A stretch of DNA of 64,000 nucleotides. Source: Haemophilus parahaemolyticus (GTDB taxonomy: Bacteria > Pseudomonadota > Gammaproteobacteria > Enterobacterales > Pasteurellaceae). The translations under genes and the position numbers were made by a program. The notes under the pieces are model-generated. The model was not told where the DNA came from, searched no databases, and worked only from the letters and a program-made list of their open reading frames with translations. Within the stretch, counting starts at the first letter, position 1, and each line of letters opens with the position of its first letter. The DNA is taken from the NCBI RefSeq assembly GCF_018373095.1, contig NZ_JAHAHT010000002.1:34-64033 (forward strand), written 5' to 3'. Shown one piece after another: positions 2,362-19,162 of the stretch.

Positions 2362-5300
2362 GTGAAAGACTTAGTTAAGTTTTTAAAAGCACAATCTAAA
2401 TCAAATGATGATTTTGATGTAATTAAAATCGGTTTAGCCTCACCAGATAAGATTCGTTCTTGGTCTTTTGGTGAAGTGAAAAAACCAGAAACCATCAATT
2501 ACCGTACCTTTAAACCTGAGCGTGATGGTCTTTTCTGTGCACGTATTTTCGGGCCGGTAAAAGATTACGAATGTTTATGTGGCAAATACAAACGCTTAAA
2601 ACACCGTGGTGTAATTTGTGAAAAATGTGGCGTTGAAGTAACCCAAACTAAAGTTCGTCGTGATCGTATGGGTCATATCGAATTAGCTTGCCCTGTGGCA
2701 CATATCTGGTTTTTAAAATCATTACCGTCCCGTATCGGTTTGATTTTAGATATGCCATTGCGTGATATTGAACGTGTGCTTTATTTCGAAAGCTATGTGG
2801 TAACAGAACCAGGTATGACTGATTTAGAAAAAGGTCAGTTATTAACTGAAGAACAGTTCATGGACGCAGAAGAGCGTTGGGGCGATGAGTTTGATGCGAA
2901 AATGGGTGCAGAAGGTATTCAAGCGTTATTACGCGATATGGATTTAGAGCACCAATGTGAAATGATGCGTGAAGAGTTACAAGAAACTAACTCTGAAACT
3001 AAACGTAAAAAAATCACAAAACGTTTAAAATTATTAGAAGCGTTCCAACAATCTGGTAACAAACCAGAATGGATGGTAATGACTGTGTTGCCAGTGCTTC
3101 CACCAGATTTACGTCCATTAGTACCACTTGATGGTGGTCGTTTTGCGACATCAGATCTGAACGATTTATACCGTCGTGTGATCAACCGTAATAACCGTTT
3201 AAAACGCTTATTAGACCTCGTAGCACCAGACATTATCGTGCGTAACGAAAAACGTATGTTGCAAGAGTCTGTAGACGCGTTATTAGATAACGGTCGTCGT
3301 GGTCGTGCGATTACAGGTTCAAACAAACGTCCATTAAAATCTCTTGCCGATATGATCAAGGGTAAACAAGGTCGTTTCCGTCAGAACTTGTTAGGTAAAC
3401 GTGTTGACTATTCGGGTCGTTCGGTAATTACCGTAGGTCCATACTTACGTCTTCACCAATGTGGTTTGCCGAAAAAAATGGCATTGGAATTATTCCGTCC
3501 ATTTATTTACTCAAAATTAGAAAACCGTGGCATTGCATCAACAATCAAAGCTGCGAAGAAAATGGTTGAGCGTGAAGAGCCGATCGTATGGGATATTCTT
3601 GCAGAAGTTATCCGCGAACACCCGATTCTTCTAAACCGTGCACCAACCCTTCACCGTTTAGGTATTCAGGCATTCGAGCCAATCCTTATCGAAGGTAAAG
3701 CAATCCAGTTACACCCACTTGTTTGTGCAGCGTTCAATGCGGACTTCGATGGTGACCAAATGGCGGTTCACGTTCCATTAACGTTAGAGGCACAGTTAGA
3801 AGCACGTGCGTTAATGATGTCAACCAACAACGTACTTTCACCAGCAAGTGGTGACCCAATTATTGTTCCATCTCAAGACGTTGTATTAGGTTTGTACTAT
3901 ATGACTCGTGAGAAAGTAAACGGTAAAGGCGAAGGAATGTACTTCTTAGACCCACGCGAGGCAGAAAAAGCCTATCGCACAGGTCAAGCAGAGTTACATT
4001 CACGTGTTAAAGTACGTATTACTGAATATGTGAAAAATGAAGCGGGCGAATTTGAACCAAAAACTTCATTAATCGACACCACAGTTGGTCGTGCAATTTT
4101 ATGGATGATCGCACCGAAAGGTATGCCATACAAATTATTCAACCAAACGTTAGGTAAAAAAGCGATTTCTAAGCTCATCAACGAATGTTACCGTCGTTTA
4201 GGCTTGAAAGAGTCTGTATTACTTGCTGACCAAGTAATGTACACAGGTTTCGCATATGCGGCACGTTCTGGTGCATCAGTGGGTATCAACGATATGGTGA
4301 TCCCAGCACAAAAAGAAGAGATCATCCGTGCAGCAGAAGCAGAAGTTGCTGAGATCCAAGAGCAATTTAACTCAGGTTTAGTAACCGTAGGCGAACGTTA
4401 TAACAAAGTAATCGATATTTGGGCTGCGGCGAACGAACGCGTGGCGAAAGCGATGATGGACAACCTTTCAACGGAAGAAGTGATTAACCGTGAAGGTAAC
4501 CCAGAAAAACAAGCTTCATTCAACAGCATCTTTATGATGGCGGACTCTGGTGCACGTGGTTCTGCAGCTCAGATTCGTCAGTTAGCAGGTATGCGTGGTT
4601 TGATGGCACGTCCAGATGGTTCGATCATCGAAACTCCAATCACGGCGAACTTCCGTGAAGGCTTGAACGTTCTTCAGTACTTTATTTCAACCCACGGTGC
4701 ACGTAAAGGTCTTGCCGATACGGCGTTGAAAACTGCGAACTCTGGTTACTTAACTCGTCGTTTAGTAGATGTAGCACAAGACTTAGTAATCATCGAAGAC
4801 GATTGTGGTACTTCAGAAGGTATCGTAATGACTCCACACATTGAAGGTGGTGATGAAAAAGTACCATTACGCGAATTAGTATTAGGTCGTGTAGCAGCTG
4901 AAGACGTATTAAAACCAGGTTCAGAAGAAGTATTAATTCCGCGTAACACCTTAATCGATGAAAAATGGTGTGATGTGATTGATGAGAACTCTGTTGATAG
5001 CATCAAAGTACGTTCTGTTGTAACTTGTGATACCGATTTCGGTGTGTGTGCGAAATGTTACGGACGTGACTTGGCACGCGGTCACTTAATCAACCAAGGT
5101 GAAGCAGTGGGTGTTATTGCGGCACAATCAATCGGTGAGCCAGGTACACAGTTAACCATGCGTACGTTCCACATCGGTGGTGCGGCATCTGCGGCAGCCA
5201 AAGAGTCTAGCGTACAAGTAAAAAACAACGGTACGATCAAGTTAGCAAATGCGAAATTCGTTACTAACAAAGAGGATAAGTTGGTATTAACTTCACGTAA

Positions 5301-6648
5301 CACTGAATTAACCGTGATTGACACCTTCGGTCGTACCAAAGAGAACTATAAAGTTCCTTACGGTGCAGTGCTTTCTAAACACGACGGCGATGAAGTGGCA
5401 GTAGGCGAAGTAGTTGCAAACTGGGATCCGCATACAATGCCAGTTATCTCAGAGGTATCAGGTCGCATCCAATTCAGCGACATCGTCGATGGTCTAACCG
5501 TTACTCGTCAAACGGATGAATTAACAGGTGTATCATCAATCGTGGTACAAGATGTGGGTGAGCGTGCAACTGCAGGTAAAGATTTACGTCCAGCATTACG
5601 CTTAGTGGATGCAAACGGTAATGATATCTTAATCCCTGGCACAGATGTTCCTGCACAATACTTCTTACCGGGTAAAGCGATTGTAACGCTTGATGATGGT
5701 GCAGAAATCGCAGTGGGTGAAGCATTAGCACGTATTCCACAAGAATCTGTAGGTACGAAAGATATTACCGGTGGTCTTCCACGCGTTGCAGACTTATTCG
5801 AAGCACGTAAACCGAAAGAACCAGCAATCCTTGCGGAAATCTCAGGTATCGTTTCATTCGGTAAAGAAACCAAAGGTAAACGCCGCTTAGTAATCACTCC
5901 TGCAGAGGGCGAAGCATACGAAGAAATGATTCCAAAATGGCGTCAGCTCAACGTATTCGAAGGCGAAATGGTACAACGTGGTGACGTGATTTCTGATGGT
6001 GCAGAAACGCCACACGATATCTTACGTTTACGCGGCGTACACGCAGTAACCAACTACATCGTGAACGAAGTACAAGAAGTTTACCGCTTACAAGGGGTAA
6101 AAATTAACGATAAACACATCGAAGTTATCGTTCGCCAAATGTTGCGTAAAGCAATCATCACCAACGCTTACGACTCAGAATTCCTTGAAGGGGAACAAGT
6201 GGAAGTGGCACGCGTGAAAATTGCAAACCGCAAACGTGCAGCAGAAGGCAAACCGTTGGTAGAATTTGAACGTGAATTGCTAGGTATCACCAAAGCATCA
6301 CTTGCGACTGAATCATTTATCTCAGCGGCATCGTTCCAAGAAACTACCCGTGTGCTTACCGAAGCAGCCGTTGCAGGTAAACAAGACGAATTACGAGGCT
6401 TGAAAGAGAACGTTATCGTAGGTCGTTTAATCCCAGCAGGTACAGGTTTTGCTTACCACAAAGCACGTGCAGAAAAACGTGCTGCGGCAGCTGCAGGACA
6501 AGCGGTTGATTTTGCAGAAACTTTTGCAAATCCAACCAACAGTTTTGCCACTGATGCAGACATTGAAGCAGAGTTTGAGTTCGTCGCTGACGACGCAACC
6601 CAAAGCTTAGCTGCTTTGTTAAATGCAGAAATGGATTCAGAAGAGTAA
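2362..6648 (+). CDS. rpoC: DNA-directed RNA polymerase subunit beta prime (GTG start)
   Basis: 1428-aa ORF with the zinc-finger CxxC..CxxC, NADFDGD catalytic motif and full-length RpoC similarity. Conserved rpoBC synteny. Confidence 0.98.
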
Positions 6649-6656
6649 TCCAGAAG

Positions 6657-6726
6657 GTGGGCTTCTAGCCCACCAATTAAAGATAGAGAAAGCCCTCAGG
6701 ACATTGAGTTCTGAGGGTTTTTATTT
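6657..6726 (+). terminator. rpoC terminator made of two consecutive hairpins
   Basis: GGTGGGCttctaGCCCACC at 6657-6675, then AGCCCTCAG..CTGAGGGTTTTTATTT at 6691-6726. Confidence 0.6.
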
Positions 6727-6873
6727 ATGCGAAAACGAAAATCTTTGCTAAAGCGATGATGAAAAAATAGAAAAATAATTATTTCTGAACGAATTAAATT
6801 TTGTAGAAGAAAATTGGGGATTGTACCAAAAAAAGGTATAATCCCCTTAATTTTTTATGATAAAGAGAACGTT

Positions 6874-7680
6874 ATGAGTAATATTCCATTAAGAAACGAA
6901 CAAGAAATCGAGAAACTTCGTGAAGCCTGCAAATTAGCTTCCGATGTGTTAGTAATGATTGAACCTTATGTGAAAGAGGGCGTGAGCACAGGCGAATTAG
7001 ACCGCATTTGCCACGAATATATGGTTAATGAGCAGAAAGTAATTCCTGCTTGTTTAAACTATCACGGATTCCCAAAATCAACCTGCATTTCTATTAATGA
7101 AGTAGTTTGCCACGGAATTCCAAGTGATGACAAAAAGCTGAAAAAAGGTGATATTGTAAACATCGATGTCACGGTAATCAAAGACGGCTATTTCGGCGAC
7201 AACTCCAAAATGTATGTGGTAGGCGAGCCTTCTATTCGTGATAAACGCTTATTAGAAGTAACACAAGAATCACTTTACATTGGCTTACGCCAAGTAAAAC
7301 CAGGCATTCGCTTAAAAGAGATCGGCACAGCGATTCAAAAATATGTGGAAAAAGAAGGCTTCTCTGTGGTACGTGAATATTGCGGTCACGGCGTAGGCAC
7401 AGAGTTCCACTGCGATCCACAAGTCTTGCACTACAACGGTGACGATGGTGGTGTAGTGTTAAAAGAAGGCATGGTGTTTACCATTGAACCAATGGTCAAT
7501 GCAGGCAAAAAAGAGATCCGCACGATGAATGATGGCTGGACAGTAAAAACCAAAGACCGTAGCCACTCAGCTCAATATGAACACCAAATTGTGGTGACCA
7601 AAGATGGCTGTGAAGTGATGACCATTCGTGATGAAGAAATTGCCGAAGGGCGAATTTCGCGTGTAATGGTGAATGTATAA
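6874..7680 (+). CDS. map: methionine aminopeptidase type I
   Basis: MSNIPLRNEQEIEKLREACKLA... shows full-length MAP similarity and the metal-binding residues (HGIP, CGHGVG). The ATG at 6874 is preferred over the longer ORF that starts at 6814. Confidence 0.95.
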   Translation: MSNIPLRNEQEIEKLREACKLASDVLVMIEPYVKEGVSTGELDRICHEYMVNEQKVIPACLNYHGFPKSTCISINEVVCHGIPSDDKKLKKGDIVNIDVTVIKDGYFGDNSKMYVVGEPSIRDKRLLEVTQESLYIGLRQVKPGIRLKEIGTAIQKYVEKEGFSVVREYCGHGVGTEFHCDPQVLHYNGDDGGVVLKEGMVFTIEPMVNAGKKEIRTMNDGWTVKTKDRSHSAQYEHQIVVTKDGCEVMTIRDEEIAEGRISRVMVNV

Positions 7681-7700
7681 AATTTAATTCTTTAAAGTAA

Positions 7701-7738
7701 AAGGCTGATTGATTTCCTCCAATCAGCCTTATTTTTAC
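7701..7738. terminator. bidirectional rho-independent terminator downstream of map
   Basis: AAGGCTGATTGatttcctccAATCAGCCTT followed by ATTTTTACT. Confidence 0.6.
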
Positions 7739-7842
7739 TCCTTCGGCAAGCGAGAAAGGATACCCACGCCAACGATAGTATCTGCTGTCACAAATTTCAG
7801 TGCTGCTTTCGCCGCTATTTTCTTCATTTCTTGTTGGTTCAT
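7735..7842 (-). pseudogene. rpiA: 5' remnant of ribose-5-phosphate isomerase A: 35 codons, of which only the first ~27 residues are RpiA-like.
   Basis: The minus-strand frame reads MNQQEMKKIAAKAALKFVTADTIVGVG, then ILSRLPKE*. This matches the E. coli RpiA N-terminus [31 protein letters not shown] and diverges where the GTGST motif should be. The rest of the gene is missing. Confidence 0.6.
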
Positions 7843-8093
7843 TACGTTTTCCTATTATTGCTTTAAAGATAAAAATTGGTCTCAATGTGTGCCAAAGAGC
7901 AAGCTACATCAAGTGATAATTTGTCATAAGTCATTTGAAAATTTTTCTGAAAATAAAAAATTTTGTTTTGCTAATTTTCCGCTAATTTTTCCTCTCTAGA
8001 ATACACACCATCAAGAGTAGAGATGCTTTTGGTCATAATGATTTTAAACTCTATGAAAATAAACTATTTTTACATGCTTACAAGGAGCAACTT

Positions 8094-8717
8094 ATGAAAA
8101 AATCAGTAAAAACTTTAGCAGCAACATTATTAGCAGGTATTATGGCTTTCGGTGCAATCAATGCAAATGCAATGTCTCCAAAAGACCAAGATGCTTTGGG
8201 TAAAGCTAAAATCACGGCAGCACAAGCATTATCTACCGCACAAACAAAAATCGGTGCCGATGCGAAAATAAAAAGTATTGATTTTAAACATCACTACTTT
8301 GGTAAAGATCATTTTGAAGTTGAAATGTTTGCTAACGGTCAAAAACAAAAAGTGGCAGTAGATGCAGCAAGCGGTGATATTTTAGGCGTGGAAAGCAAAG
8401 CCCTTAAAACCGTGAAAGTTAGCCCAACAGCAGATATTGCACCACAAGTGAACTTCGCTCAAGCAATGGACACCGCGGTAGCAAAAACGGGCGGTAAAGT
8501 GGCAGAAGCGGACTTAGAATATAAACGCGGTATGGTATTCTACAAAATTGAAACCGTAAACAATGGTGTGGTTTATAAAGTGGCGGTAGATGCAAACAGC
8601 GGGCAAATTATTGATATGCCACAAAAACATGAAGGTAAACATCATAAACACGCTCGTTTTGAAAAAGGCGAACGTCACAAACATCCTCAAAATGAAGGCG
8701 GTTTCCGTCAAAACTAA
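8094..8717 (+). CDS. secreted tandem-PepSY domain protein with a His-rich C-terminal tail
   Basis: Signal peptide MKKSVKTLAATLLAGIMAFGAINANA. Two PepSY-like repeats (...FEVEMFANGQKQKVAVDAASGDILGVE and ...VFYKIETVNNGVVYKVAVDANSGQIIDM). The tail is HEGKHHKHARFEKGERHKHPQNEGG. Confidence 0.8.
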   Translation: MKKSVKTLAATLLAGIMAFGAINANAMSPKDQDALGKAKITAAQALSTAQTKIGADAKIKSIDFKHHYFGKDHFEVEMFANGQKQKVAVDAASGDILGVESKALKTVKVSPTADIAPQVNFAQAMDTAVAKTGGKVAEADLEYKRGMVFYKIETVNNGVVYKVAVDANSGQIIDMPQKHEGKHHKHARFEKGERHKHPQNEGGFRQN

Positions 8718-8743
8718 TCTTATCTTCGCATTGTGCGATGTCG

Positions 8744-8768
8744 GGCGGATGTATTTCCGCCTATTTTT
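8744..8768 (+). terminator. hairpin plus T-run after the PepSY gene
   Basis: GGCGGAtgtattTCCGCC followed by TATTTTT. Confidence 0.5.
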
Positions 8769-8808
8769 CGATAAAATCTCGTCAATTTTTTGATCCTTCA
8801 TTTTTACT

Positions 8809-9474
8809 ATGCGAATTTTATTGGTCGAAGACGACAAAATGATTGCCGAAGCGGTATCGAACGGCTTAAAAACCGCTCGTTATGCGGTGGATTGGGTAAA
8901 CAACGGCAACACGGCAGAACAGGCGTTAAACAGCCAACAATATGATTTGGTGTTGCTCGATTTGGGTTTACCAGGGCAAGATGGTTTGCAAGTACTGAAA
9001 CATCTCCGACAAGAGAAAAACAATACGCCTGTGTTGATTGTCACCGCGCGTGATGATTTGGATAGTCGCTTGGCAGGCTTAGACGGTGGGGCGGACGATT
9101 ACATTATTAAACCTTTTGATTTGTCCGAATTACTTGCCCGCATTCGTGCTGTCCTGCGTCGCCAAAGCGGACAAAGTACACCATTGTTAAGTAACGGTGC
9201 TATAACCCTCAATCCGACGAATTACCAAGTTACTCTCGCTGATCAACCGATGCCGATTGAGCTTAGCAACAAAGAGTTTTCCATTCTGCAAGCCTTAATG
9301 ACAAGACCAGGGATTATCCATTCTCGTGCCGATTTGGAAGATAAAATCTACGCGTGGGGCGATGAGGTGGAGAGCAACGCCATTGATTTTCTGATTCACG
9401 CCTTACGCAAGAAAATCGGCAAAGAGCATATTAAAAATGTGCGAGGCGTGGGGTGGTTGGTGTCTAAAAATTAG
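8809..9474 (+). CDS. OmpR/PhoB-family response regulator, QseB/BasR(PmrA)-like
   Basis: MRILLVEDDKMIAEAV...DLVLLDLGLPGQDGLQVL receiver domain, followed by a winged-helix C-terminus (ALRKKIGKEHIKNVRGVGW). Confidence 0.9.
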   Translation: MRILLVEDDKMIAEAVSNGLKTARYAVDWVNNGNTAEQALNSQQYDLVLLDLGLPGQDGLQVLKHLRQEKNNTPVLIVTARDDLDSRLAGLDGGADDYIIKPFDLSELLARIRAVLRRQSGQSTPLLSNGAITLNPTNYQVTLADQPMPIELSNKEFSILQALMTRPGIIHSRADLEDKIYAWGDEVESNAIDFLIHALRKKIGKEHIKNVRGVGWLVSKN

Positions 9475-9511
9475 TGATACCTCGGATAATAACCTTACCC
9501 TAAGAGGAAAA

Positions 9512-10891
9512 ATGAAAAACTCAATCCAACTCAAACTCACTTTAGCTTTTACTGCCCTTTTCACCGTGGTGGCAGGCATTGCGGGCGGTGTTTCGTTCTA
9601 CGATACTTACCGCGAAACGTACAAACTGCAAGACGATATGTTGGTTCAGCTTTCGGGCTTTGTCAATTCTGTGGAAAATCCGACCGCACTTTCGGGGGAT
9701 TTTCGTCCACCACGCGATAACGATGCACGAATTTATATGCATTTTGAGCGAAACGGCACGCATACAGAAAGTCTTCCGCCGAATTTTCCACAGCAAATGG
9801 AAGATGGTTTCCATACACTCAGAAAAGATGGCAAAAAATACAAAAGAGTCAAACCGCACAAAGAAAATCGCTTTTGGTTTACGTTGAAAAACGCCAATGA
9901 TTTATACCGCACTTACGTTCGTAACACACCCAACGGCAAGATTATCATCACCCAAGAAAATGAATATCGTGAAGAACTGGCATTCCGCAGTGCATGGCAG
10001 AGCGTGATTCCGCTGATTGTGTTGTTGCCGTTGATTATTTTGCTGACCATTTGGATTGTCCGTCTCGCAATGAAGCCTGTAGACAGACTTTCTCACAAGC
10101 TAGAAAAACGCCACGAGCAAAATCTTACACCGTTGCCGACGGAAAAAATCCCGAGCGAAATTCGCGGATTTGTGGTGGAAATCAACCGCTTGCTGGGGCG
10201 AACAGATGAATTTATTCAGCAACAAAAACGCTTTATTGCGGATGCGTCACACGAGTTGCGTAGTCCGATGACTGCACTTTCCTTGCAAGTAGAGCAACTC
10301 GCTCATCAAGATTTGCCTGCTGAAGCCAAAACTCAACTTATCCAAGTGAAACAAGGTCTTCAGCGTAGTCGTAACTTACTAGAACAGCTGCTTTCATTGG
10401 CTCGCATTCAAAATAACAAAATGGAAAACCACAGCGATTTTAACGTGCAGGATATTTTCCGCAGCGTAATTGAAGATTTGCTACCTCTTGCCCTCGATAA
10501 AGATCAGGATTTGGGTGTAACGAATGAGCAAGCAGTCAAGTTCCACGGTTCAGAAACGGATCTCTACTTGCTCGTTAAAACGCTGGTGGATAACGCCATT
10601 CGCTACACACCAAACGGTAGCCAGATTGATTTAAGTGTCAAAGAGAAAGGCGGTAGCATTCAGATCTGCGTAGAAGATAACGGCAACGGCATTCCACCAG
10701 AAGAACGCCAACGTGTGCTAGATCCGTTCTACCGCATTCTTGGCACAGAGCAACAAGGCTCTGGCTTAGGCTTGGCGATTGCTGAGGAGATTGTGAAAAA
10801 TTATGGTGGAAAAATTGAATTAAAAGATTCAGTGAGTTTTGAAACGGGGTTGTTAGTGGAAGTTGAATTACCAACAAGCGGTCAAATTTAG
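9512..10891 (+). CDS. sensor histidine kinase, QseC/BasS(PmrB)-like
   Basis: Two TM segments flank a periplasmic domain, followed by HAMP, the H-box FIADASHELRSPMTAL and HATPase_c N/G boxes (DNGNGIP, GSGLGLAI). The ATG at 9512 has an AAGAGGAAA RBS; the longer ORF from 9437 overlaps the response regulator. Confidence 0.9.
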   Translation: MKNSIQLKLTLAFTALFTVVAGIAGGVSFYDTYRETYKLQDDMLVQLSGFVNSVENPTALSGDFRPPRDNDARIYMHFERNGTHTESLPPNFPQQMEDGFHTLRKDGKKYKRVKPHKENRFWFTLKNANDLYRTYVRNTPNGKIIITQENEYREELAFRSAWQSVIPLIVLLPLIILLTIWIVRLAMKPVDRLSHKLEKRHEQNLTPLPTEKIPSEIRGFVVEINRLLGRTDEFIQQQKRFIADASHELRSPMTALSLQVEQLAHQDLPAEAKTQLIQVKQGLQRSRNLLEQLLSLARIQNNKMENHSDFNVQDIFRSVIEDLLPLALDKDQDLGVTNEQAVKFHGSETDLYLLVKTLVDNAIRYTPNGSQIDLSVKEKGGSIQICVEDNGNGIPPEERQRVLDPFYRILGTEQQGSGLGLAIAEEIVKNYGGKIELKDSVSFETGLLVEVELPTSGQI

Positions 10892-10899
10892 GAAATTTT

Positions 10900-10926
10900 T
10901 TGTAAAAGTGATTAAGGCGATATAAT
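10900..10926 (+). promoter_or_regulatory. putative sigma-70 promoter for the FtsZ-like gene
   Basis: TTGTAA, a ~15-nt spacer and a perfect TATAAT at 10921-10926. AGGAG RBS at 10969-10973, 7 nt before the ATG. Confidence 0.4.
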
Positions 10927-10980
10927 TTGTTGCATTATTTTATTATTCTGCATATAGCTTAAATCAATAGGAGAAGAAAA

Positions 10981-11661
10981 ATGTTTGAGCCGATTTTTGA
11001 AGAAAAAATTATCCCTGTAATTTCTATTGTTGCCAAAGGCGAATTTGGTGTGAGAGTGGTTAATTCGTTGATGTATCCAGCTAAAATTTACTGCTTAAAA
11101 TTTGAAGAACTAGAAGAGTTATCAAAGAATGATATGACATTTATTGTAGCAGATAAACTTAATGAAGAGGAATGGGCAAAAATCCGCCGAGCAACATCAA
11201 ATCCCATTGTTGTTGTAGGCTGTTCAATGCCAGAAGAAGTAGAATTTGCTAGTTGCTCTTTTAATGAAACCTCTACAGAATTATGTAGCAAAATAATAAA
11301 ATCTATTATTGATATCCTGACTCAGGAAGGTTTAGTTGACATTGATTTCGCAGATATTCACCGAATTTTATTTGAATGTGGTAAACACGCTAAAGCTGGT
11401 TATGCTAAAAATATGTTAGCTAAAGATGCGACTAGAAAGATATTAAATCAATTAGGCGATAAATCCGTTTCACTCGACAAAGCGAAAGGAGTATTAATCA
11501 ATATTGTTGCAGGTGAGCAATTAGAATTTAAAGAGGTTGATTTGATTACTCAAACAATCATTGAAAAAACCAACCAAGAAGCAACCATTATTTTTGGCAC
11601 AAGATTTGATACAAATAAATCAGGTAAAGAATTAGATTTAAGCGTGGTAGTAACTTACTAA
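10981..11661 (+). CDS. truncated, GTPase-motif-deficient FtsZ paralog (226 aa), monocistronic
   Basis: The N-terminus MFEPIFEEKIIPVISIVAKGEFGVRVVNSLM aligns to E. coli FtsZ MFEPMELTNDAVIKVIGVGGGGGNAVEHMV. The C-terminal ~110 aa (GLVDIDFADIHRIL...AKGVLINIVAGEQLEFKEVDLITQTI...ATIIFGTRFD...ELDLSVVVTY) aligns to the FtsZ C-terminal domain (GLMNVDFADVRTVM...ARGVLVNITAGFDLRLDEFETVGNTI...ATVVIGTSLD...ELRVTVVATG). There is no GGGTGTG T4 loop, linker or C-terminal peptide. Confidence 0.8.
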   Translation: MFEPIFEEKIIPVISIVAKGEFGVRVVNSLMYPAKIYCLKFEELEELSKNDMTFIVADKLNEEEWAKIRRATSNPIVVVGCSMPEEVEFASCSFNETSTELCSKIIKSIIDILTQEGLVDIDFADIHRILFECGKHAKAGYAKNMLAKDATRKILNQLGDKSVSLDKAKGVLINIVAGEQLEFKEVDLITQTIIEKTNQEATIIFGTRFDTNKSGKELDLSVVVTY

Positions 11662-11665
11662 AATA

Positions 11666-11710
11666 CAAGCGGTAGATTTTGCAATTTGTTTTACAGAATC
11701 CACCGCTTGT
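11666..11710. terminator. bidirectional terminator formed by an inverted USS pair, shared by the FtsZ-like gene and glmM
   Basis: ACAAGCGGTagattttgcaatttgttttacagaatccACCGCTTGT followed by TGTTT. Confidence 0.55.
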
Positions 11711-11724
11711 TGTTTATGGAAGAA

Positions 11725-13056
11725 TTAGTTACGTTTCACTGCTTCCGCAATCTCTTTCGCACAGCTTTGGGCTAACGTTGCATCTTCACACTCTACCATC
11801 ACACGAATAAGCGGTTCTGTACCTGATTTACGTAACAAGATACGTCCTTTTCCTGCTAAGCGTTCTTCTACTGTTTTTGCAACAGCTTTTACTTCTTCGC
11901 TATTGAGTGGGTTTTCACCGCCTGCGAAGCGAACGTTAATTAATACTTGTGGGAAGAGTGGCACGGCTTTTGCTAATTCGTTTAAGGTTAGATTGTGTTT
12001 TACCATTGCCACTAACACTTCAAGCGAGGCAACAATACCATCACCCGTGGTGTTTTTATCTAACACGATGATATGACCTGAGTTTTCACCGCCTAATTTC
12101 CAGCCTTTCTCTTTTAATTGCTCAAGCACATAGCGGTCGCCCACGTTGGCACGTACGAATGGAATAGCAAGCTCTTTTAATGAGAGTTCTAAACTCATAT
12201 TGCTCATCAATGTACCCACTACACCGCCTTTTAATTTGCCCGCACGCAACGCTTCACGTGCCAAAATAAACAGAATTTGGTCGCCATCTACTTTATTGCC
12301 TAAGTGGTCTACCATCATAATGCGGTCGCCATCACCATCGTAAGCTAAACCGATGTCTGCTTCCGACTCTTTCACCACTTTTTGAAGTGCTTTAATGTCA
12401 GTTGCCCCGCATTTTTCGTTGATGTTTAAACCGTTCGGGCGAGTACCAATTTCGATCACATCAGCCCCTAACTCACGCATTACGTTTGGTGCAATGTGGT
12501 AAGTTGCACCGTTCGCACAATCCACCACAATTTTTAAGCCGTCTAAGCTTAATTCGGATGGGAAACCTGCTTTACAAAATTCAATGTAACGACCCGCCGC
12601 ATCATTGATACGGCTCGCCTTACCAAGGTTTGCAGAGTCAACACAATCCATCGGCTCATCTAACATCGCTTCGATCGCTTCTTCCACTTCATCAGGTAAT
12701 TTTTCGCCCACTGATGAGAAGAATTTGATTCCGTTGTCGTAGTATGGGTTGTGAGACGCTGAAATCACGATCCCCGCTTCTGCACGGAAAGTGCGGGTTA
12801 AATACGCAATTGCAGGGGTTGGCATTGGACCGACGAATACCGCAGATAAACCTGCTGCAGTTAAACCTGCTTCAAGTGCTGATTCCAGCATATAGCCAGA
12901 AATACGGGTGTCTTTACCAATAATCACTTTTTTCGTGCCTTGAGTCGCAAGTACTTTACCTGCTGCCCAACCGAGTTTTAACGCAAATTCTGGCGTAATT
13001 GGGAATTTACCGACTTCACCACGTACACCATCTGTACCGAAATATTTGCGAGCCAT
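11725..13056 (-). CDS. glmM: phosphoglucosamine mutase
   Basis: [24 protein letters not shown]... and the active-site SASHNP. Full-length GlmM, 443 aa. Confidence 0.95.
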
Positions 13057-13065
13057 AAATGTTCC

Positions 13066-14589
13066 TTATTTTAAAAAGTATTGATAAGCCAAGCTGTCGC
13101 TCACGTCTTGGTAGCGATAGCCTAATTGTTCTAAATGTTTGGTTAATTCTGCTTCTGAGCCTTCAGCTACAGGGAATGCGGCTAAAATATCGCCGTAGTC
13201 TGCACCGTGTGCACGGTAGTGGAACAACGAAATATCCCAATCAGTTAAGGCTTGTAAGAATGTAAGCAATGCCCCTTTCTGTTCTGGGAAGTCAAAGCGG
13301 TAGAGTTTTTCGTTTTGAATACTAGCCGGTCTGCCACCAATCATATAACGCACGTGGGTTTTAGCGATGTCATCATCTGATAAATCGCTCACATCGTAAC
13401 CATTTTGGCGAAGCTCCTCGAGAATTTCTGCTTTTTCTTGGCTGCCAGAAATACGAACACCTACGAAGATACACGCGTTGGCATCATCTGCATGACGGTA
13501 GTTAAATTCTGTCACCGCACGGCTACCCAGAATTTGGCAAAATTTTAAGAAGCTGCCTTTCTGCTCTGGAATGGTTACCGCTAATAAGGCTTCACGTTTT
13601 TCGCCAATTTCGCAACGCTCAGACACAAAACGCAAGGTATGGAAATTAAGGTTTGCACCTGAGAGCACGCAAGCAAGATTTTCTCCTTCGATGCCGTGCT
13701 TTTTCACATATTTTTTCAAACCTGCAAGCGAGGTTGCGCCCGAAGGCTCCGCCACCGCACGTACATTCTCAAAAATATCTTTCAGTGCCGCACAAATTTC
13801 ATCATTATCGACTAAAACTACATCATCGACATATTGTTTACAAATACGGAAAGTTTCATCGCCAATGCGTTTTACCGCAATACCGTCTGCGAATAAACCT
13901 ACGTGATCTAAATCGACAGGCTGACCCGCTTTTAATGCGTGATATAAACAAGCAGAGTCTTTGGATTCTACCCCAATGACTTGAATTTCAGGCAGAAGTT
14001 GTTTCACGAGCACTGCGATCCCAGCAATCAAACCGCCGCCGCCAACAGGCACAAAAATGCGGTTTAGATCGGAACGTTGCTGAATGAGCTCCATCGCAAT
14101 TGTGCCTTGCCCTGCAATCACGGCTGGAGCATCAAATGGGTGGATAAAGGTCATATTCAACTCTTTCGAAAGCTCAAGTGCTTTGGCTTTGGCTTCGTCA
14201 AAGTTCGCACCATAAAGCAATACTTCTCCACCAAAACCACGCACCGCATCCACTTTAATACTTGGTGTATTTTGTGGCATCACAATTAAGGCACGTAAGC
14301 CTAAATGTTTCGCTGAAAGCGCGACACCTTGAGCGTGGTTACCCGCAGAAGCCGCAATCACACCCGCTTCTTTTTGAGCTTTAGAAAGATTAGAAATCAT
14401 CGCAAATGCCCCGCGTAGCTTAAAGCTATGCACTGGCTGGCGATCTTCACGTTTGATGAAAATATTATTTTTCAAGCGTGAAGAGAGCTTGTCCATTTTT
14501 TGTAATGGCGTGACTTGAGCGAGATCATAAATATTGGAACTAAGAATAGTGCGGAGATAGTCCGTATTCGATTGGATTTGTTGTGTCAT
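13066..14589 (-). CDS. ilvA: threonine dehydratase, biosynthetic
   Basis: MTQQIQSNTDYLRTILSSNIYDL... with the PLP-lysine motif (SFKLRGA) and two C-terminal ACT-like regulatory domains. The start was taken at the MTQQ ATG rather than the longer ORF. Confidence 0.93.
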   Translation of the reverse strand: MTQQIQSNTDYLRTILSSNIYDLAQVTPLQKMDKLSSRLKNNIFIKREDRQPVHSFKLRGAFAMISNLSKAQKEAGVIAASAGNHAQGVALSAKHLGLRALIVMPQNTPSIKVDAVRGFGGEVLLYGANFDEAKAKALELSKELNMTFIHPFDAPAVIAGQGTIAMELIQQRSDLNRIFVPVGGGGLIAGIAVLVKQLLPEIQVIGVESKDSACLYHALKAGQPVDLDHVGLFADGIAVKRIGDETFRICKQYVDDVVLVDNDEICAALKDIFENVRAVAEPSGATSLAGLKKYVKKHGIEGENLACVLSGANLNFHTLRFVSERCEIGEKREALLAVTIPEQKGSFLKFCQILGSRAVTEFNYRHADDANACIFVGVRISGSQEKAEILEELRQNGYDVSDLSDDDIAKTHVRYMIGGRPASIQNEKLYRFDFPEQKGALLTFLQALTDWDISLFHYRAHGADYGDILAAFPVAEGSEAELTKHLEQLGYRYQDVSDSLAYQYFLK

Positions 14590-15583: not shown

Positions 15584-16186
15584 ATGAGCTTATTCTCAGA
15601 ACCATCTAAACGTCGTTATGGCGTGGCGGTATTTGTTGGTATTATCGCGGGCATTATTTCAGCATTCGTAAAATGGGGTGCAGAGCATCCATTCCCACCA
15701 CGTAGTCCAATTGATTTCTTCGAAGCTGCGTGTAAAGTGGACATCACTGGTTTAACTCAAAACCAAATTTTCGAAGTTTGTTCACGTGCTTTCTTAAATC
15801 CACCACACGTTTTCTTACGCGACTACATCGGTATCGACCCAACAGAAGCAGTATTCACATTTGCAGACCACGCATTTAACTGGATCGGAGTAACTCATAT
15901 GCTTTTCTCATTAGTGTTCGCTATCGGTTACTGTGTTGTGGCTGAAATCTTCCCGAAAATTAAATTCTGGCAAGGTATCGGTGCGGGTATCATCGCAAAC
16001 ATCTGTGTTCACTACATTACATTCCCTGCGTTAGGTTTAACACCACCAGTTGCAGAATGGCCATTATATGAGCACATCTCTGAATTAGTAGGTCACATCT
16101 TCTGGTTCTGGACAATCGAGGTAATTCGCCGCGATTTACGCAACCGTATTACTCACCAACCAGATGTTGATGAAATAAGTCGCTAA
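15584..16186 (+). CDS. YagU-family (DUF1440) inner membrane protein
   Basis: Strong similarity to E. coli YagU: [33 protein letters not shown]... and ...[21 protein letters not shown]. Confidence 0.85.
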
Positions 16187-16196
16187 TTTCTTATTT

Positions 16197-16228
16197 AAAA
16201 AGCCACAATTAAATAATTGTGGCTTTTT
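16197..16228. terminator. bidirectional terminator between the yagU-like gene and the PEtn transferase gene
   Basis: AAAAAGCCACAATTaaatAATTGTGGCTTTTT. Confidence 0.6.
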
Positions 16229-16238
16229 ACACAGTTTA

Positions 16239-17792
16239 TTACTTCAAACGTACATCTACCGCAGGATCTACATCCTTACGGTATTTCTCTTTAATCTGTT
16301 TTTGTAAACCATAGTCGTCTTTATCTGCTTGATTTGAAAACAGATCTTCCTTGCCAAGTTTTGGATTTTGAATCCCCACCCAATGAGCGATGCCTTCTAA
16401 GAAGTTCAATCCAGATTTGAATACTTTATATTCGTGGCGTTCAGTGTCATCAGACGAAATTTTAAATAGCGGAATATTATGGTGTAACTGGCTGTGGCAG
16501 TTTTGGTTGAACAAAATCGCACCATCTTTTTCGTTCGTTTGATGACATAAACCGTGGTCAGAGAAATAGATCATCGAGAATGAACGGTGCGTTTTTTGCT
16601 CGTTCTCTTTCAATTGCTCATAGGTGCGTTTTAAGAAATCATCGGTTTTCTTAATCGATGAGATGTAGCAATTGAGGTAATCATATTGCGGTTTGATTTC
16701 ACCTTCTTTAAAGATTTTCGGATAATCCTCCACGCGGTCACAAGCTAACGGGTGTGAGCCGTAAAGGTGCAATACGATAAAGCGTTTACCTTGTGCAGGG
16801 GCTTCTAACACTTGAGCGAATTTCGGCAAGAGATCAAAGTCACTGTAATTGGTAGAGTTAAAGCTACCACCATTTTTAAGAAATATTGTTTCATCCGCTT
16901 TGGAGGCAAGCGAGGAAATTGGTGTGTCATATTCGCCTAAAAAGCCTTGATTGGAAATCCAATAGGTTTTTACGTCTGCGGATTTTACGAGGTCAAGCAA
17001 GCTCAAATCATAGTGTGGCTCCCAACTTTCTTTGTTTGGCAACGTAAGCATTAAACGCAATGACGCGATGGTGTTTGTACCTGCGGAGGTCATTCCGTCA
17101 ATCAACGTACCGTTCGCACTCGACATAAAAGGGGTGTTTTCCACAGGGTAGCCATAGGCGCGATGGTAATCTTTGCGAGCACTTTCGCCTAATACAATCA
17201 CATAATCATCATATTTCGAATTTTCGAGCGTTGAGCTACCCCAATTGTTCGCTTTTGCCATCTCTTTAAGCGTGTGCATCTCTTTGGTAATTTTTACCGC
17301 AGAATCAACCGCTTGTTTAAGTGGCTCTGCAATAGGTGAATAATAGGCAAAGAGCAAGCCTGAAAGTACCACGAAGGTACGATTGCGTTGGAATTGAATG
17401 CCTGTATTCAAACGGATTTTATATTGCAGCCAGATAAGCAACGGAATTACAAACGCAATGAGGTAGCTGCTGATTGGCATTTGCTGTAAGAACTCTTTGG
17501 TTTCAAGCAAATCCGTGGCAAAAATTGAGGCGATATATTGGTAACTTGGTGCACCAAAATTTAAGCCTGTTGGCGTATAAATTGCGTGAATGATTGCTAG
17601 CGGAAGCAGTAAAAAATAGAAGGCTTTTTTGCTAGAGCTGAGGAAAATAATCAGTACGCTGGTCAGCAGAATTTGCCCGACATCAGGTTCAGGGAACATT
17701 CCTGAACCGATAAGGAGAAAGTAACTGCTGAGTAGGGTAATTGCAAGAATTAATATCAGTGCGGTAGGTTTAGAAAGATTAGCGAGTTTCAT
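16239..17792 (-). CDS. sulfatase-family phosphoethanolamine transferase, EptA/EptB/Lpt-like
   Basis: An N-terminal ~150-aa multi-TM domain plus a periplasmic sulfatase/alkaline-phosphatase-like domain (..[13 protein letters not shown].., ..[13 protein letters not shown].., ..MIYFSDHG..). Confidence 0.8.
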
Positions 17793-17815
17793 AATACAAA
17801 TAGATAAGAAAAACG

Positions 17816-17916
17816 TTTACTCTCTCCCCTCGTAGGGAGAGACAGGAAAATTGCATTTAGCAATTTGTCAAAGAGGAGCAAAAAAGCGGTCAAAAATGAC
17901 CGCTTACTCTCTCCCA
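17816..17916. repeat. a GC-rich palindrome of the CTCTCCC..GGGAGAG family and a 12-bp direct repeat (TTACTCTCTCCC, two copies) flanking a tight USS hairpin
   Basis: tttACTCTCTCCCctcgtaGGGAGAGacagg at 17816-17843. AAGCGGTCAaaaaTGACCGCTT at 17884-17905. A second TTACTCTCTCCC at 17904-17916. Confidence 0.4.
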
Positions 17917-17974
17917 AATTTCAATGCTGAACGCCTTGAAATTATCCCTCTCCTACAAAGGAAAAGGGCAATCA

Positions 17975-19162
17975 TTAAGCCGTTACTTTATTCTTATTTG
18001 TCGTAGCTTTCAATAGAATATAGCCGACAACTGCCGATAAATTCGTTCCAATTAAGATACCTAATTGAGCTAATGGGAGCATATTGCTGCCATCATTATT
18101 ATCCGCACCGAAAGCTAAGCCTGCGATAAAAACAGACATCGTGAAACCAATACCACAAAGCACCGCAATCGCAAAAATCTGTTTGAAATTGACCCCTTGT
18201 GGTAAACCTGCAAGGCGAAGCAACACTGCAACATAGCTGAATAAGAATACACCAACTGGTTTACCAATAAACAAACCCAATGCGATACCTAGTGGCACAG
18301 GTGAAGTCAATTTTTCTAAGCTCATACCATCAAATGAGACGCCTGCATTGGCAAATGCGAAGAGCGGTAGAATCACAAATGAACACCAAGGAGCTAAAAT
18401 ATGTTCTAAGTGGTAAAGAGGTGTTTCACCATTTTTACCTCGTAGAGGGATTGCAAAACCAATGATCACACCAGCCAATGTCGCATGTACACCTGATTTC
18501 AGCACAGATGCCCATAAAATTGATCCGACGATTAAGTAGTGAATCATACTCACTACTTTATAACGGTTCATCGTGAATAACGTAATAATCGCAAGACTCG
18601 CCACAATTAACGCAGGCATACTCATTTCGTGTGAGAAGAAAATAGCAATTACCACAATAGCACCAATATCATCAATAATGGCTAACGCAAGCAAGAACAT
18701 TTTTAGTGGTAATGGCACTTGCTTACTGAGTAATGCGACAATACCTAATGCAAAAGCAATATCCGTCGCCATTGGGATTGCCCAACCACGAACAAGTTCA
18801 GGATCATGGTGATTGATAAAATAGTAAATCAACGCAGGTACAATCATTCCACCAAATGCGGCAAATGCGGGAAGAGAAGCTTTACGCACGCTTGAAAGCG
18901 AGCCTTCAAACATTTCTCGTTTGACTTCAAGTCCAACAAGCACAAAAAAGACCGCCATAAAGCCATCATTAATCCACATTAAAAGTGGTTTATCAATCGC
19001 AAAAGCCCCAACCTTCAACACCACTTGGGTTTGTAAAAAATCAAAATAGACAGATTGTACGCCTGTGTTGGCACAAATAATCGCTAATATAGCCGCGACA
19101 AAAAGCAGGATGCCGCCTGAAGATTCAAGTTTAAGGAAATTCTTAATTTGCCTAATCATCAT
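17975..19162 (-). CDS. nhaA: Na+/H+ antiporter NhaA
   Basis: Full-length similarity to E. coli NhaA (..[21 protein letters not shown].., ..[14 protein letters not shown].., ..[14 protein letters not shown]..). Confidence 0.95.

Follow-up and report, generated by a model that had tools for sequence, protein, structure and literature searches.

To our knowledge, the regulators of the cell division protein FtsZ that have so far been described in bacteria, such as SulA, MinC, SlmA, MciZ, and Kil, are proteins unrelated to FtsZ. In plants, the FtsZ-like domain of ARC3, an inhibitor of chloroplast Z-ring assembly, is degenerate. This FtsZ-derived protein is described as exerting direct negative control over FtsZ assembly (bioRxiv 10.1101/2024.01.08.574726; PMC12232670). 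The present analysis concerns a 226-residue paralog of FtsZ, here termed mini-FtsZ, which is encoded within a 64,000-nucleotide (nt) stretch of Haemophilus parahaemolyticus contig NZ_JAHAHT010000002.1 (hereafter, the window), and for which ARC3 represents the nearest functional analog and the functional precedent for the mechanism proposed below. ARC3 differs from mini-FtsZ in that it is eukaryotic, carries MORN repeats, is regulated by ARC6/PARC6, and acts within the plastid Min system, and there is no evident common descent of the two other than that from FtsZ itself.

Among the bacterial FtsZ paralogs, Agrobacterium tumefaciens FtsZ_3 (Atu_4215) is likewise non-essential, truncated, and devoid of a linker and C-terminal peptide, and it is encoded beside a full-length ftsZ (10.1101/412759); it retains part of the GTPase domain (48% identical to that of Escherichia coli) and lacks the C-terminal half, whereas mini-FtsZ presents the reverse arrangement. 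FtsZ_1 and the Magnetospirillum FtsZm, unlike mini-FtsZ, keep a working GTPase core. SulA and MciZ, whose folds are unrelated to that of mini-FtsZ, bring about the same outcome as that proposed here, in that one longitudinal face of FtsZ is occupied and growth is blocked (for MciZ, PMC8936486). The face bound by these two inhibitors is the T7/C-terminal (donor) face, whereas mini-FtsZ is predicted to bind the opposite, GTP-bearing face. Furthermore, SulA is controlled by LexA, whereas no LexA box was evident by eye upstream of mini-FtsZ; an absence of SulA from Haemophilus was rejected as a premise, as PMC3795038 discusses SulA in H. influenzae. Finally, Caulobacter DriD/DidA and Acinetobacter DdaA/AciT exhibit a layout of regulator plus small effector resembling that of the WYL-linked sub-lineage of mini-FtsZ relatives described below (PMC4211646, PMC13010146); DidA and AciT, however, are small proteins unlike FtsZ, and the window allele has no adjacent WYL gene.

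Anatomy of mini-FtsZ and its relationship to FtsZ

Mini-FtsZ is a derivative of FtsZ over its whole length and not just at its ends. In a profile-profile comparison performed using hhalign (family profile, n = 14; FtsZ profile, n = 25), 225 columns were aligned with a probability of 99.3% and an E value of 1e-20, and residues 1 to 31 (MFEP..., comprising S1, T1, and H1) were matched to residues 1 to 31 of FtsZ without a gap, as had been claimed for the N-terminal ~30 residues in an earlier note on this DNA. The Pfam model FtsZ_C (PF12327) matches residues 147 to 225 (52.2 bits, E 7.5e-14, cut-off 27), while the same search of mini-FtsZ returned no match to PF00091, the tubulin/FtsZ GTPase domain. 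NCBIfam TIGR00065 (ftsZ) aligns to residues 101 to 225 only, against model positions 194 to 322, with a score of 62.8 bits relative to a cut-off of 295.2, and comparison with solved structures aligns residues 97 to 225 to E. coli FtsZ ~180 to 306 (E 2e-11). A structural model was generated with AlphaFold2 from a 39-sequence alignment (predicted local distance difference test [pLDDT] 88, predicted template modeling score [pTM] 0.86), a single-sequence model having been rejected (pLDDT 42); when this model was submitted to Foldseek, FtsZ ranked first (E 1e-14, query-normalized template modeling score [TMq] 0.70 to 0.73), a result which is not fully independent of FtsZ because the input alignment contained FtsZs. 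The model exhibits the two-domain fold of the FtsZ/tubulin superfamily (a Rossmann-like N-domain, H7, and the C-terminal subdomain), and no similarity across the whole chain was found except to FtsZ or tubulin. Membership of the TubZ, PhuZ, CetZ, or tubulin groups was rejected, as mini-FtsZ is not closer to any of those than to FtsZ. The Pfam, profile-profile, AlphaFold2, and Foldseek results thus uphold the earlier suggestion of descent from genuine FtsZ and extend it to the entire chain.

Relative to canonical FtsZ (H. parahaemolyticus FtsZ, P0164; Pseudomonas aeruginosa FtsZ, PDB 2VAW), with which it shares a colinear MFEP N terminus, H7, the T7 aspartates, and the C-terminal subdomain, mini-FtsZ possesses a core which is ~90 residues shorter, the loss being distributed across at least three deletions. 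Its N-terminal part still comprises S1-T1-H1-S2, S4, the final portion of H5 together with S6, and a residual H6/H7 loop (MPEEVEF, corresponding to LPKGVKF of FtsZ). FtsZ residues ~49 to 88, which encompass T2, H2, S3, T3, and most of H3, are deleted, as are the T4 signature GGGTG(T/S)G (GGGTGTG) and the S5/T5 region, and KGEFG stands in the place of the G-box GGGGGN. The portion running from H7 and the T7 loop through the whole C-terminal subdomain is preserved; D122 and D125 of the T7 loop are equivalent to D209 and D212 of E. coli FtsZ, while the equivalent of N207 is Asp (DIDFAD in the window). The chain stops at S10 (...SVVVTY), and neither a linker nor the FtsA/ZipA-binding C-terminal peptide is present. 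Although the register of residues 58 to 95 is uncertain, every alignment places the ends in the same way and shows the nucleotide loops to be lost. A BLASTP register placing residues 12 to 97 on FtsZ 119 to 190, corresponding to one large N-terminal deletion, was rejected because the profile-profile alignment keeps S1-T1-H1 in register from Met1 and because of the gapless MFEP...G..G match.

As mini-FtsZ lacks the G-box, T2, T3, the T4 signature, and T5, no GTP binding is expected, in agreement with the earlier reading that nucleotide-binding motifs are wanting, that the G-box has been replaced, and that the T4 signature, linker, and C-terminal peptide are gone. That reading had, however, also held that helix H7 and the T7 loop are absent and that a single central segment of ~130 residues was lost; both statements proved to be wrong, since GLVDIDFADI is the T7 loop, residues 97 to 225 align to FtsZ 180 to 306, and the losses are smaller and multiple. 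Because H7 and T7 are retained, the mechanism to be considered differs from that envisaged previously, a specific one-sided polymerization face having been kept. When compared with canonical FtsZ, therefore, mini-FtsZ has the FtsZ_C domain and the superfamily fold, but it scores below the TIGR00065 cut-off and possesses no GTPase domain, no T4 signature, and no C-terminal peptide; in further contrast to canonical FtsZ, it is accessory rather than essential and evolves 10 to 20 times faster.

Distribution, haplotypes, and evolution of the family

At 50% clustering, an exhaustive HMMER scan over 1.84 billion representatives identified only ~9 short relatives of full length; the remaining matches were to ordinary FtsZ and covered its C-terminal half only. 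All relatives belong to Pasteurellaceae and comprise 226 to 247 amino acids (aa). The 226-aa allele class, to which the window protein belongs, is represented by 26 sequences, and a class of 230/234 aa, which occurs in both H. parahaemolyticus and H. paraphrohaemolyticus, is represented by 87. Further relatives are encoded by two uncultured Haemophilus forms, an H. parainfluenzae-like genome, Aggregatibacter kilianii, and an Avibacterium-like lineage. A protein identical to that of the window is on record as a “hypothetical protein” of H. parahaemolyticus (WP_304106253.1/MBS6008264.1), while members of the 230/234-aa class are annotated as “cell division protein FtsZ” or “FtsZ family, C-terminal domain protein”; current annotation is misleading because one allele is labeled as a cell division protein FtsZ though it is unable to be a functional FtsZ.

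No family members were present in phage or plasmid records, in which tblastn detected only the C-terminal halves of canonical ftsZ genes, and a phage or plasmid origin was rejected on these grounds. PHROGs yielded no match, BFVD yielded phage FtsZ and tubulins only, and PADLOC-DB 2.0 yielded no match for the window protein or five relatives, the PADLOC matches obtained being confined to the WYL part of one fusion protein (P0008) and to a neighboring FRG-domain gene (PDC-S15). With Pfam and NCBIfam reporting FtsZ_C only and no description of such an FtsZ-derived family found in searches of the published literature, the earlier assertion that the protein belongs to no recognized family holds, and mini-FtsZ defines an uncharacterized, Pasteurellaceae-restricted family of FtsZ-derived pseudo-GTPases.

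The genomic contexts of the family vary. In A. kilianii (NRCJ01000004.1; locus L020, positions 3968 to 12523), the relative P0007 is embedded in a type I restriction-modification operon, the gene order being hsdM, hsdS, the FRG-domain gene (PADLOC PDC-S15, E 1.8e-110), P0007, and hsdR, followed by ParE/RelB. This defense island is one of ~7 contexts, the others lying between housekeeping genes. In the Avibacterium-like locus L022, a gene encoding a winged helix-turn-helix (wHTH)-WYL regulator (positions 3 to 755) is located 79 nt upstream of the mini-FtsZ relative (834 to 1577), while in L011 (446 to 1939) the wHTH-WYL and mini-FtsZ parts are fused within a single open reading frame (ORF) of 497 aa (P0008). 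A conserved gene for a predicted lipoprotein of 87/88 aa follows the relative in L021 to L023. The WYL regulators DriD and DdaA activate DNA damage-induced division inhibitors, DdaA responding also to DNA uptake (PMC4211646, PMC13010146); by analogy, the WYL context would support conditional use as a division brake, the relative concerned being only 27% identical to the window protein.

Three haplotypes were distinguished at the H. parahaemolyticus locus. In the first (the window and L003 to L010), map is followed by an rpiA remnant, genes for a PepSY protein, a response regulator, and a histidine kinase, the 226-aa allele, and glmM. In the second (L002 and L017 to L019), serA-rpiA is followed by the 230/234-aa allele and glmM-ilvA-slyD-lpxC-ftsZ-ftsA-ftsQ. 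In the third (L027 to L031), serA-rpiA, the PepSY and two-component module, and glmM...ftsZ are present without a paralog, the gap between the kinase gene and glmM being 82 nt; each of the 24 contigs inspected for that glmM variant had this arrangement. The PepSY and two-component module, too, varies in presence as a cassette located between rpiA and glmM; it is found in the window and in L027 to L031 but is missing in L002 and L017. The earlier note had correctly placed the gene next to this module, which lies immediately upstream; as a conserved partner, however, the module does not hold up, given that the 230/234-aa allele has rpiA upstream and that the third haplotype has the module and no paralog. 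A functional link between mini-FtsZ and the module was therefore rejected, because the two occur independently in sister haplotypes.

When the window is compared with L002, nucleotide identity amounts to 88 to 100% over the terminator and glmM and to 50 to 78% starting exactly at the paralog stop codon, and the mini-FtsZ proteins are ~44 to 46% identical as against 99% for GlmM. The cassette is bounded on both sides by uptake signal sequences (USS), which would favor gain, loss, and allele exchange by natural transformation. As regards its source, mini-FtsZ arose from a Pasteurellaceae ftsZ. In the second haplotype the genuine ftsZ is located ~5 kb from mini-FtsZ, and the H. parahaemolyticus alleles start MFEPIFEE where the local FtsZ starts MFEPVYET; this proximity and shared N terminus are consistent with, but do not prove, an origin by local ftsZ duplication. 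The window itself does not contain the genuine ftsZ, as judged by tblastn. Following slyD, it harbors (at 15584 to 19162) a DUF1440 gene, a sulfatase-family (EptA-like) gene, and nhaA in the place occupied by lpxC-ftsZ-ftsA-ftsQ in the sister haplotypes, so that the locus of this strain does not adjoin the end of the dcw cluster.

Mini-FtsZ is a maintained gene which evolves rapidly. In the orthologous pair L001/L024, its synonymous divergence (dS) is 0.79, its nonsynonymous divergence (dN) is 0.257, and dN/dS is 0.33, compared with a dS of 0.62 and dN/dS of 0.019 for the flanking rpiA and values of 0.90 and 0.025 for lysR; at equal dS, amino acid change is thus 10 to 20 times faster in mini-FtsZ than in its neighbors. 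Further pairs gave dN/dS values of 0.37 to 0.41, and a very close pair (L002/L017) gave 0.80, from 18 nonsynonymous and 6 synonymous changes. ORFs of 226 to 247 aa are intact and free of frameshifts in more than 10 lineages, at dS values from 0.5 to saturation. The 110 nt upstream of the gene display 83% column-wise identity across alleles whose proteins are 35 to 45% identical, and the terminator is conserved too, while the coding region has diverged to ~55% nucleotide identity. Because ORF lengths are intact at saturated dS, dN/dS is below 1, the ribosome-binding site (RBS) is invariant, and the upstream region is conserved, the gene is unlikely to be a decaying pseudogene, a possibility which the earlier note had itself put forward as grounds for refutation.

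Within each allele class, dS is lower than that of the flanks (0.029 versus 0.125 to 0.48 and 0.042 versus 0.26 to 0.33 in two comparisons), which suggests that alleles spread by recombination. A recent selective sweep, considered in view of the paralog dS of 0.029 against L003 next to a glmM dS of 0.48, was rejected on the basis of a 300-nt mismatch profile: the glmM-5′ ilvA segment is an imported divergent tract and the paralog is near background divergence, so that part of the dS contrast derives from the tract.

Possible roles of mini-FtsZ in Z-ring control

The longitudinal interface between FtsZ subunits is formed by the donor/acceptor pairs H10/H6-H7 loop, S9/T5, H8/T3, and T7/H1-H2; the catalytic water is held in place by D210 and D213 (S. 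aureus numbering), and growth of the filaments occurs at the end where T7 is exposed, shrinkage at the end where the nucleotide is exposed (Ruiz et al. 2022, PMC8936486). As the alignment shows, mini-FtsZ keeps all four donor elements (T7 with both aspartates, H8, S9, and H10) and has lost at least three acceptor elements, with them most of the acceptor (nucleotide-side) polymerization face, and the nucleotide. We tentatively propose, while regarding the proposal as plausible rather than probable, that it represents a one-sided FtsZ subunit which docks on the GTP face, sequesters assembly-competent FtsZ, and possibly behaves in the manner of a GTPase-activating protein. The T7 face of mini-FtsZ would dock either onto a host FtsZ monomer, at its GTP-bearing face, or onto the nucleotide-exposed (shrinking) protofilament end, and no further subunit could then add onto the docked protein, which, lacking a C-terminal peptide, would also be unable to reach the membrane. 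Since FtsZ monomers dock via their GTP face onto the T7-exposing end, occupancy of that face would withdraw monomers from assembly. The retained aspartates might trigger GTP hydrolysis in the bound FtsZ, and the net effect would be a dose-dependent brake on Z-ring assembly, conditional rather than housekeeping in nature. The capping, poisoning, or decoy functions suggested in the earlier note are plausible candidates; that note did not foresee that the gene is accessory, that it evolves rapidly, or that one relative lies in a defense island.

The aspartates are retained above expectation for 30% identity, the D209 equivalent being Asp in 10 and Glu in 3 of the 14 family members and the D212 equivalent being Asp in 12, at an overall identity of 27 to 45%. 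The equivalent of L272, a bottom-face assembly determinant of E. coli FtsZ, is hydrophobic or aromatic in most members. The best-conserved positions of the family are K19, G20, F22, and G23 of the T1-like loop, D58, W65, G80, C92, D122, D125, L155, Q157, and L158; K19 (92%), F22 and G23 (both 100%), D58, W65, and G80 fall in the range of 92 to 100%, and KGEFG constitutes the most conserved segment, the T1-like loop having an identity fraction of 0.85 versus 0.48 overall.

Several observations weigh against the one-sided subunit. The N207 equivalent is kept in 1 of the 14 members, and in S. aureus FtsZ the single substitution N208L abolishes assembly (PMC8936486). Two to three members (P0007, P0240, and L024) are without one or both aspartates. 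The T7/H8 segment is conserved no better than the protein average and has the highest dN/dS in five of five pairs (0.41 to 1.14, one pair having 5 nonsynonymous and 0 synonymous changes), a pattern not expected of a surface which binds the ultra-conserved face of FtsZ; counts pooled by hand from three independent pairs (~39 nonsynonymous to 15 synonymous changes in T7/H8, 190 to 117 in the rest) were estimated not to differ significantly and indicate a trend only. The most conserved residues sit not on the T7 face but in the remodeled former nucleotide pocket. Moreover, the gene can be dispensed with, since a common haplotype does not carry it, and one relative resides in a type I restriction-modification/PDC-S15 island, a setting more in keeping with a conflict role than with division control.

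Such a conflict role is embodied in the rival explanation, which we consider unlikely, that mini-FtsZ is a decoy or sponge which mimics the C-terminal subdomain and T7 surface of FtsZ, soaks up FtsZ attackers, and thereby protects the Z-ring or reports attack; its targets could be phage or prophage division inhibitors, toxins, or endogenous inhibitors of the SulA/MinC type. The locus bears a conflict-like signature, namely, presence/absence polymorphism and two alleles of 44 to 46% identity between flanks of 93 to 100% identity, to which may be added the accelerated protein evolution at equal dS, the low G+C content, the within-class dS below that of the flanks, the USS around the cassette, and the position of the A. 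kilianii member between the PDC-S15 (FRG) gene and hsdR, near ParE/RelB. The T7/H8 face, which is the SulA-binding site on FtsZ (PDB 1OFU), tends to the highest dN/dS, but this excess is not significant on the hand-pooled counts. No antagonist was identified, PADLOC and PHROGs gave no match, the phage and plasmid collections held no copies, and the defense island accounts for just one of the ~7 contexts; in addition, the conserved KGxFG/D58/W65 pocket would be needless in a decoy.

A further rival explanation is that the FtsZ fold has been reused without reference to FtsZ, for example, to bind a small ligand or another protein in the conserved pocket, the T7 aspartates being historical or structural. 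This neofunctionalization, which we likewise judge to be distinctly unlikely, would account for a family-specific conserved motif unrelated to FtsZ function and for the loss of N207 and, in some members, of the aspartates, and it has its nearest bacterial precedent in Agrobacterium FtsZ_3, for which no division phenotype and a diffuse localization were described (10.1101/412759). The chain, however, resembles only FtsZ/tubulin, there is no conserved partner gene in H. parahaemolyticus, and the aspartates are kept more often than the low identity predicts. The same pocket residues (K19, F22, G23, D58, W65, and G80, the most conserved of the family), together with the retained H1 and H6/H7-loop remnant, could alternatively serve a capper of the opposite orientation, in which the nucleotide-free former GTP pocket traps the T7 loop at the growing filament end and acts as a sub-stoichiometric poison of the MciZ type. 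Although blocking the T7-exposing growing end is the potent mode of inhibition (PMC8936486), the deletion of H2, T3, and T5 has removed three of the four acceptor-side contact elements, and the conserved residues could equally be structural, filling an empty pocket; we hold this orientation to be decidedly improbable. Least credible, to the point of being very improbable indeed, is a non-functional remnant, that is, a decaying ftsZ duplicate still open by chance, since the low G+C content, atypical codons, dispensability, and close-pair dN/dS of 0.8 which might suggest it are countered by the persistence of intact ORFs, all of much the same length, across more than 10 lineages (pairs at dS 0.5 to 0.8 or saturated), dN/dS of 0.33 to 0.41 at moderate divergence, the invariant RBS and conserved upstream region, the invariant family-specific residues, and the confident fold prediction.

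In a broader formulation, which we regard as possible though on the unlikely side, mini-FtsZ would be a nucleotide-independent, FtsZ-derived pseudo-GTPase encoded by a mobile, diversifying accessory gene and serving either as a Z-ring off-switch (upon damage, DNA uptake, or infection) or as a decoy for phage or toxin proteins. If true, bacteria would have in it their first counterpart of plant ARC3, and it would also be the first known case of a division-protein mimic used in genetic conflict. A GTP-dead, one-sided FtsZ subunit, for its part, would constitute a new means of Z-ring control or protection, made from the polymer's own interface, and would allow the polarity and capping of FtsZ filaments to be studied as a natural experiment. 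The polymorphism, fast evolution, and defense island and WYL contexts suggest that division mimicry may join phage-host or stress conflicts in competent Pasteurellaceae. While function is here inferred, the anatomy (T7 kept, nucleotide site destroyed), the hypervariable accessory genetics, and the WYL and defense contexts provide a good experimental lead.

Flanking signals and neighboring genes

The ORF call bears out the position and the length of 226 aa given earlier for the gene (Table 1), as well as its stand-alone character. Its G+C content of 32 to 33% contrasts with 43 to 46% in the neighboring genes, and G+C at third codon positions is 0.23 versus 0.34 to 0.49, so that its description as AT-richer than its surroundings is accurate. 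Of the rare codons ascribed to it, AGA is used for 3 of its 6 Arg residues and ATA for 3 of its 25 Ile residues, both being almost absent from the neighbors, whereas AGG does not occur. The PepSY, response regulator, and histidine kinase genes occupy positions 8094 to 10891, and the convergent glmM lies on the far side of the terminator.

Table 1. Features of the mini-FtsZ gene and its flanks in the window
Feature	Positions	Strand	Remarks
USS ACAAGCGGT, 3′ end of kinase gene, left flank of cassette	10874-10882	+	
Promoter-like TTGTAA (10900-10905), 15-nt spacer, TATAAT (10921-10926)	10900-10926	+	-10 perfect, spacing suboptimal
Inverted repeat GCGATA-N5-TGTTGC, overlapping the proposed -10	10917-10933	+	Alignment columns ~58-76
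RBS AGGAG, 7 nt before ATG	10969-10973	+	Invariant across alleles
Mini-FtsZ paralog ORF	10981-11661	+	226 codons from ATG; stop TAA 11659-11661
Residues 1-98, shrunken Rossmann-like N-terminal domain	10981-11274	+	
Residues 19-23, KGEFG in place of the FtsZ G-box (T1 loop)	11035-11049	+	
Residues 99-114, helix H7, kept	11275-11322	+	
Residues 117-126, GLVDIDFADI, T7 synergy loop	11329-11358	+	E. coli counterpart GLMNVDFADV
Residues 127-226, FtsZ C-terminal subdomain (H8, S7, H9, S8, H10, S9, S10)	11359-11658	+	Pfam PF12327
Inverted-USS hairpin ACAAGCGGT ... ACCGCTTGT (Apl-type USS pair), bidirectional terminator common to convergent glmM	11665-11710		

The promoter, RBS, and terminator which the earlier note had assigned to the gene fared differently. 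The TTGTAA-N15-TATAAT sequence is present, but it was not called by a consensus promoter scan because its spacer is 15 nt, and in the upstream alignment the L001/L024 alleles do not share its -10 element. The AGGAG RBS is found as described, and the inverted-USS terminator is substantiated by a predicted stability of -23.3 kcal/mol (z = -5.5 versus shuffles); the same hairpin occurs in the paralog-less haplotype. The inverted repeat has the family consensus (T)GCGACA-N5-TGTCGC(A) and lies upstream of all alleles of the H. parahaemolyticus group and of uncultured Haemophilus. The window copy carries C-to-T changes in both arms, the pairing of which is preserved only as G-U in RNA read from the plus strand, and the repeat could be an operator or an RNA hairpin of the 5′ untranslated region. 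Further copies in the window were not above chance (6 found versus 2.5 expected), and inspection by eye led to the rejection of a CRP-S site (TGCGA-N6-TCGCA), for which the spacing is wrong, and of a LexA box, for which the orientation is wrong.

Upstream of mini-FtsZ, the longest ORF of the histidine kinase (484 aa, from 9437) overlaps the response regulator gene by 38 nt (region 9437 to 9512), and its start is ambiguous, gene callers in sister contigs switching between versions of 484 and 459 aa. The rpiA remnant (7762 to 7842, minus strand, within 7761 to 7946) corresponds to the first 27 codons of the gene, is 96% identical to H. paraphrohaemolyticus RpiA, and is flanked, together with the rpiA-proximal intergenic region, by map and the PepSY gene. 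The window is without serA, an SNF transporter gene, and a full-length rpiA, all of which occupy this position in sister genomes, from which it follows that this haplotype arose by deletion or rearrangement. Downstream, a divergent tract (11627 to 14026; glmM and 3′ ilvA) differs from L003 by 12 to 34 mismatches per 300 nt, mostly 15 to 34, compared with ~3 to 10 in the adjacent 300-nt windows, the two genomes being otherwise 96 to 99% identical and the glmM dS being 0.48. The window glmM is nearer to that of H. paraphrohaemolyticus (dS 0.28). The tract has the appearance of an import by recombination, the species being naturally competent.

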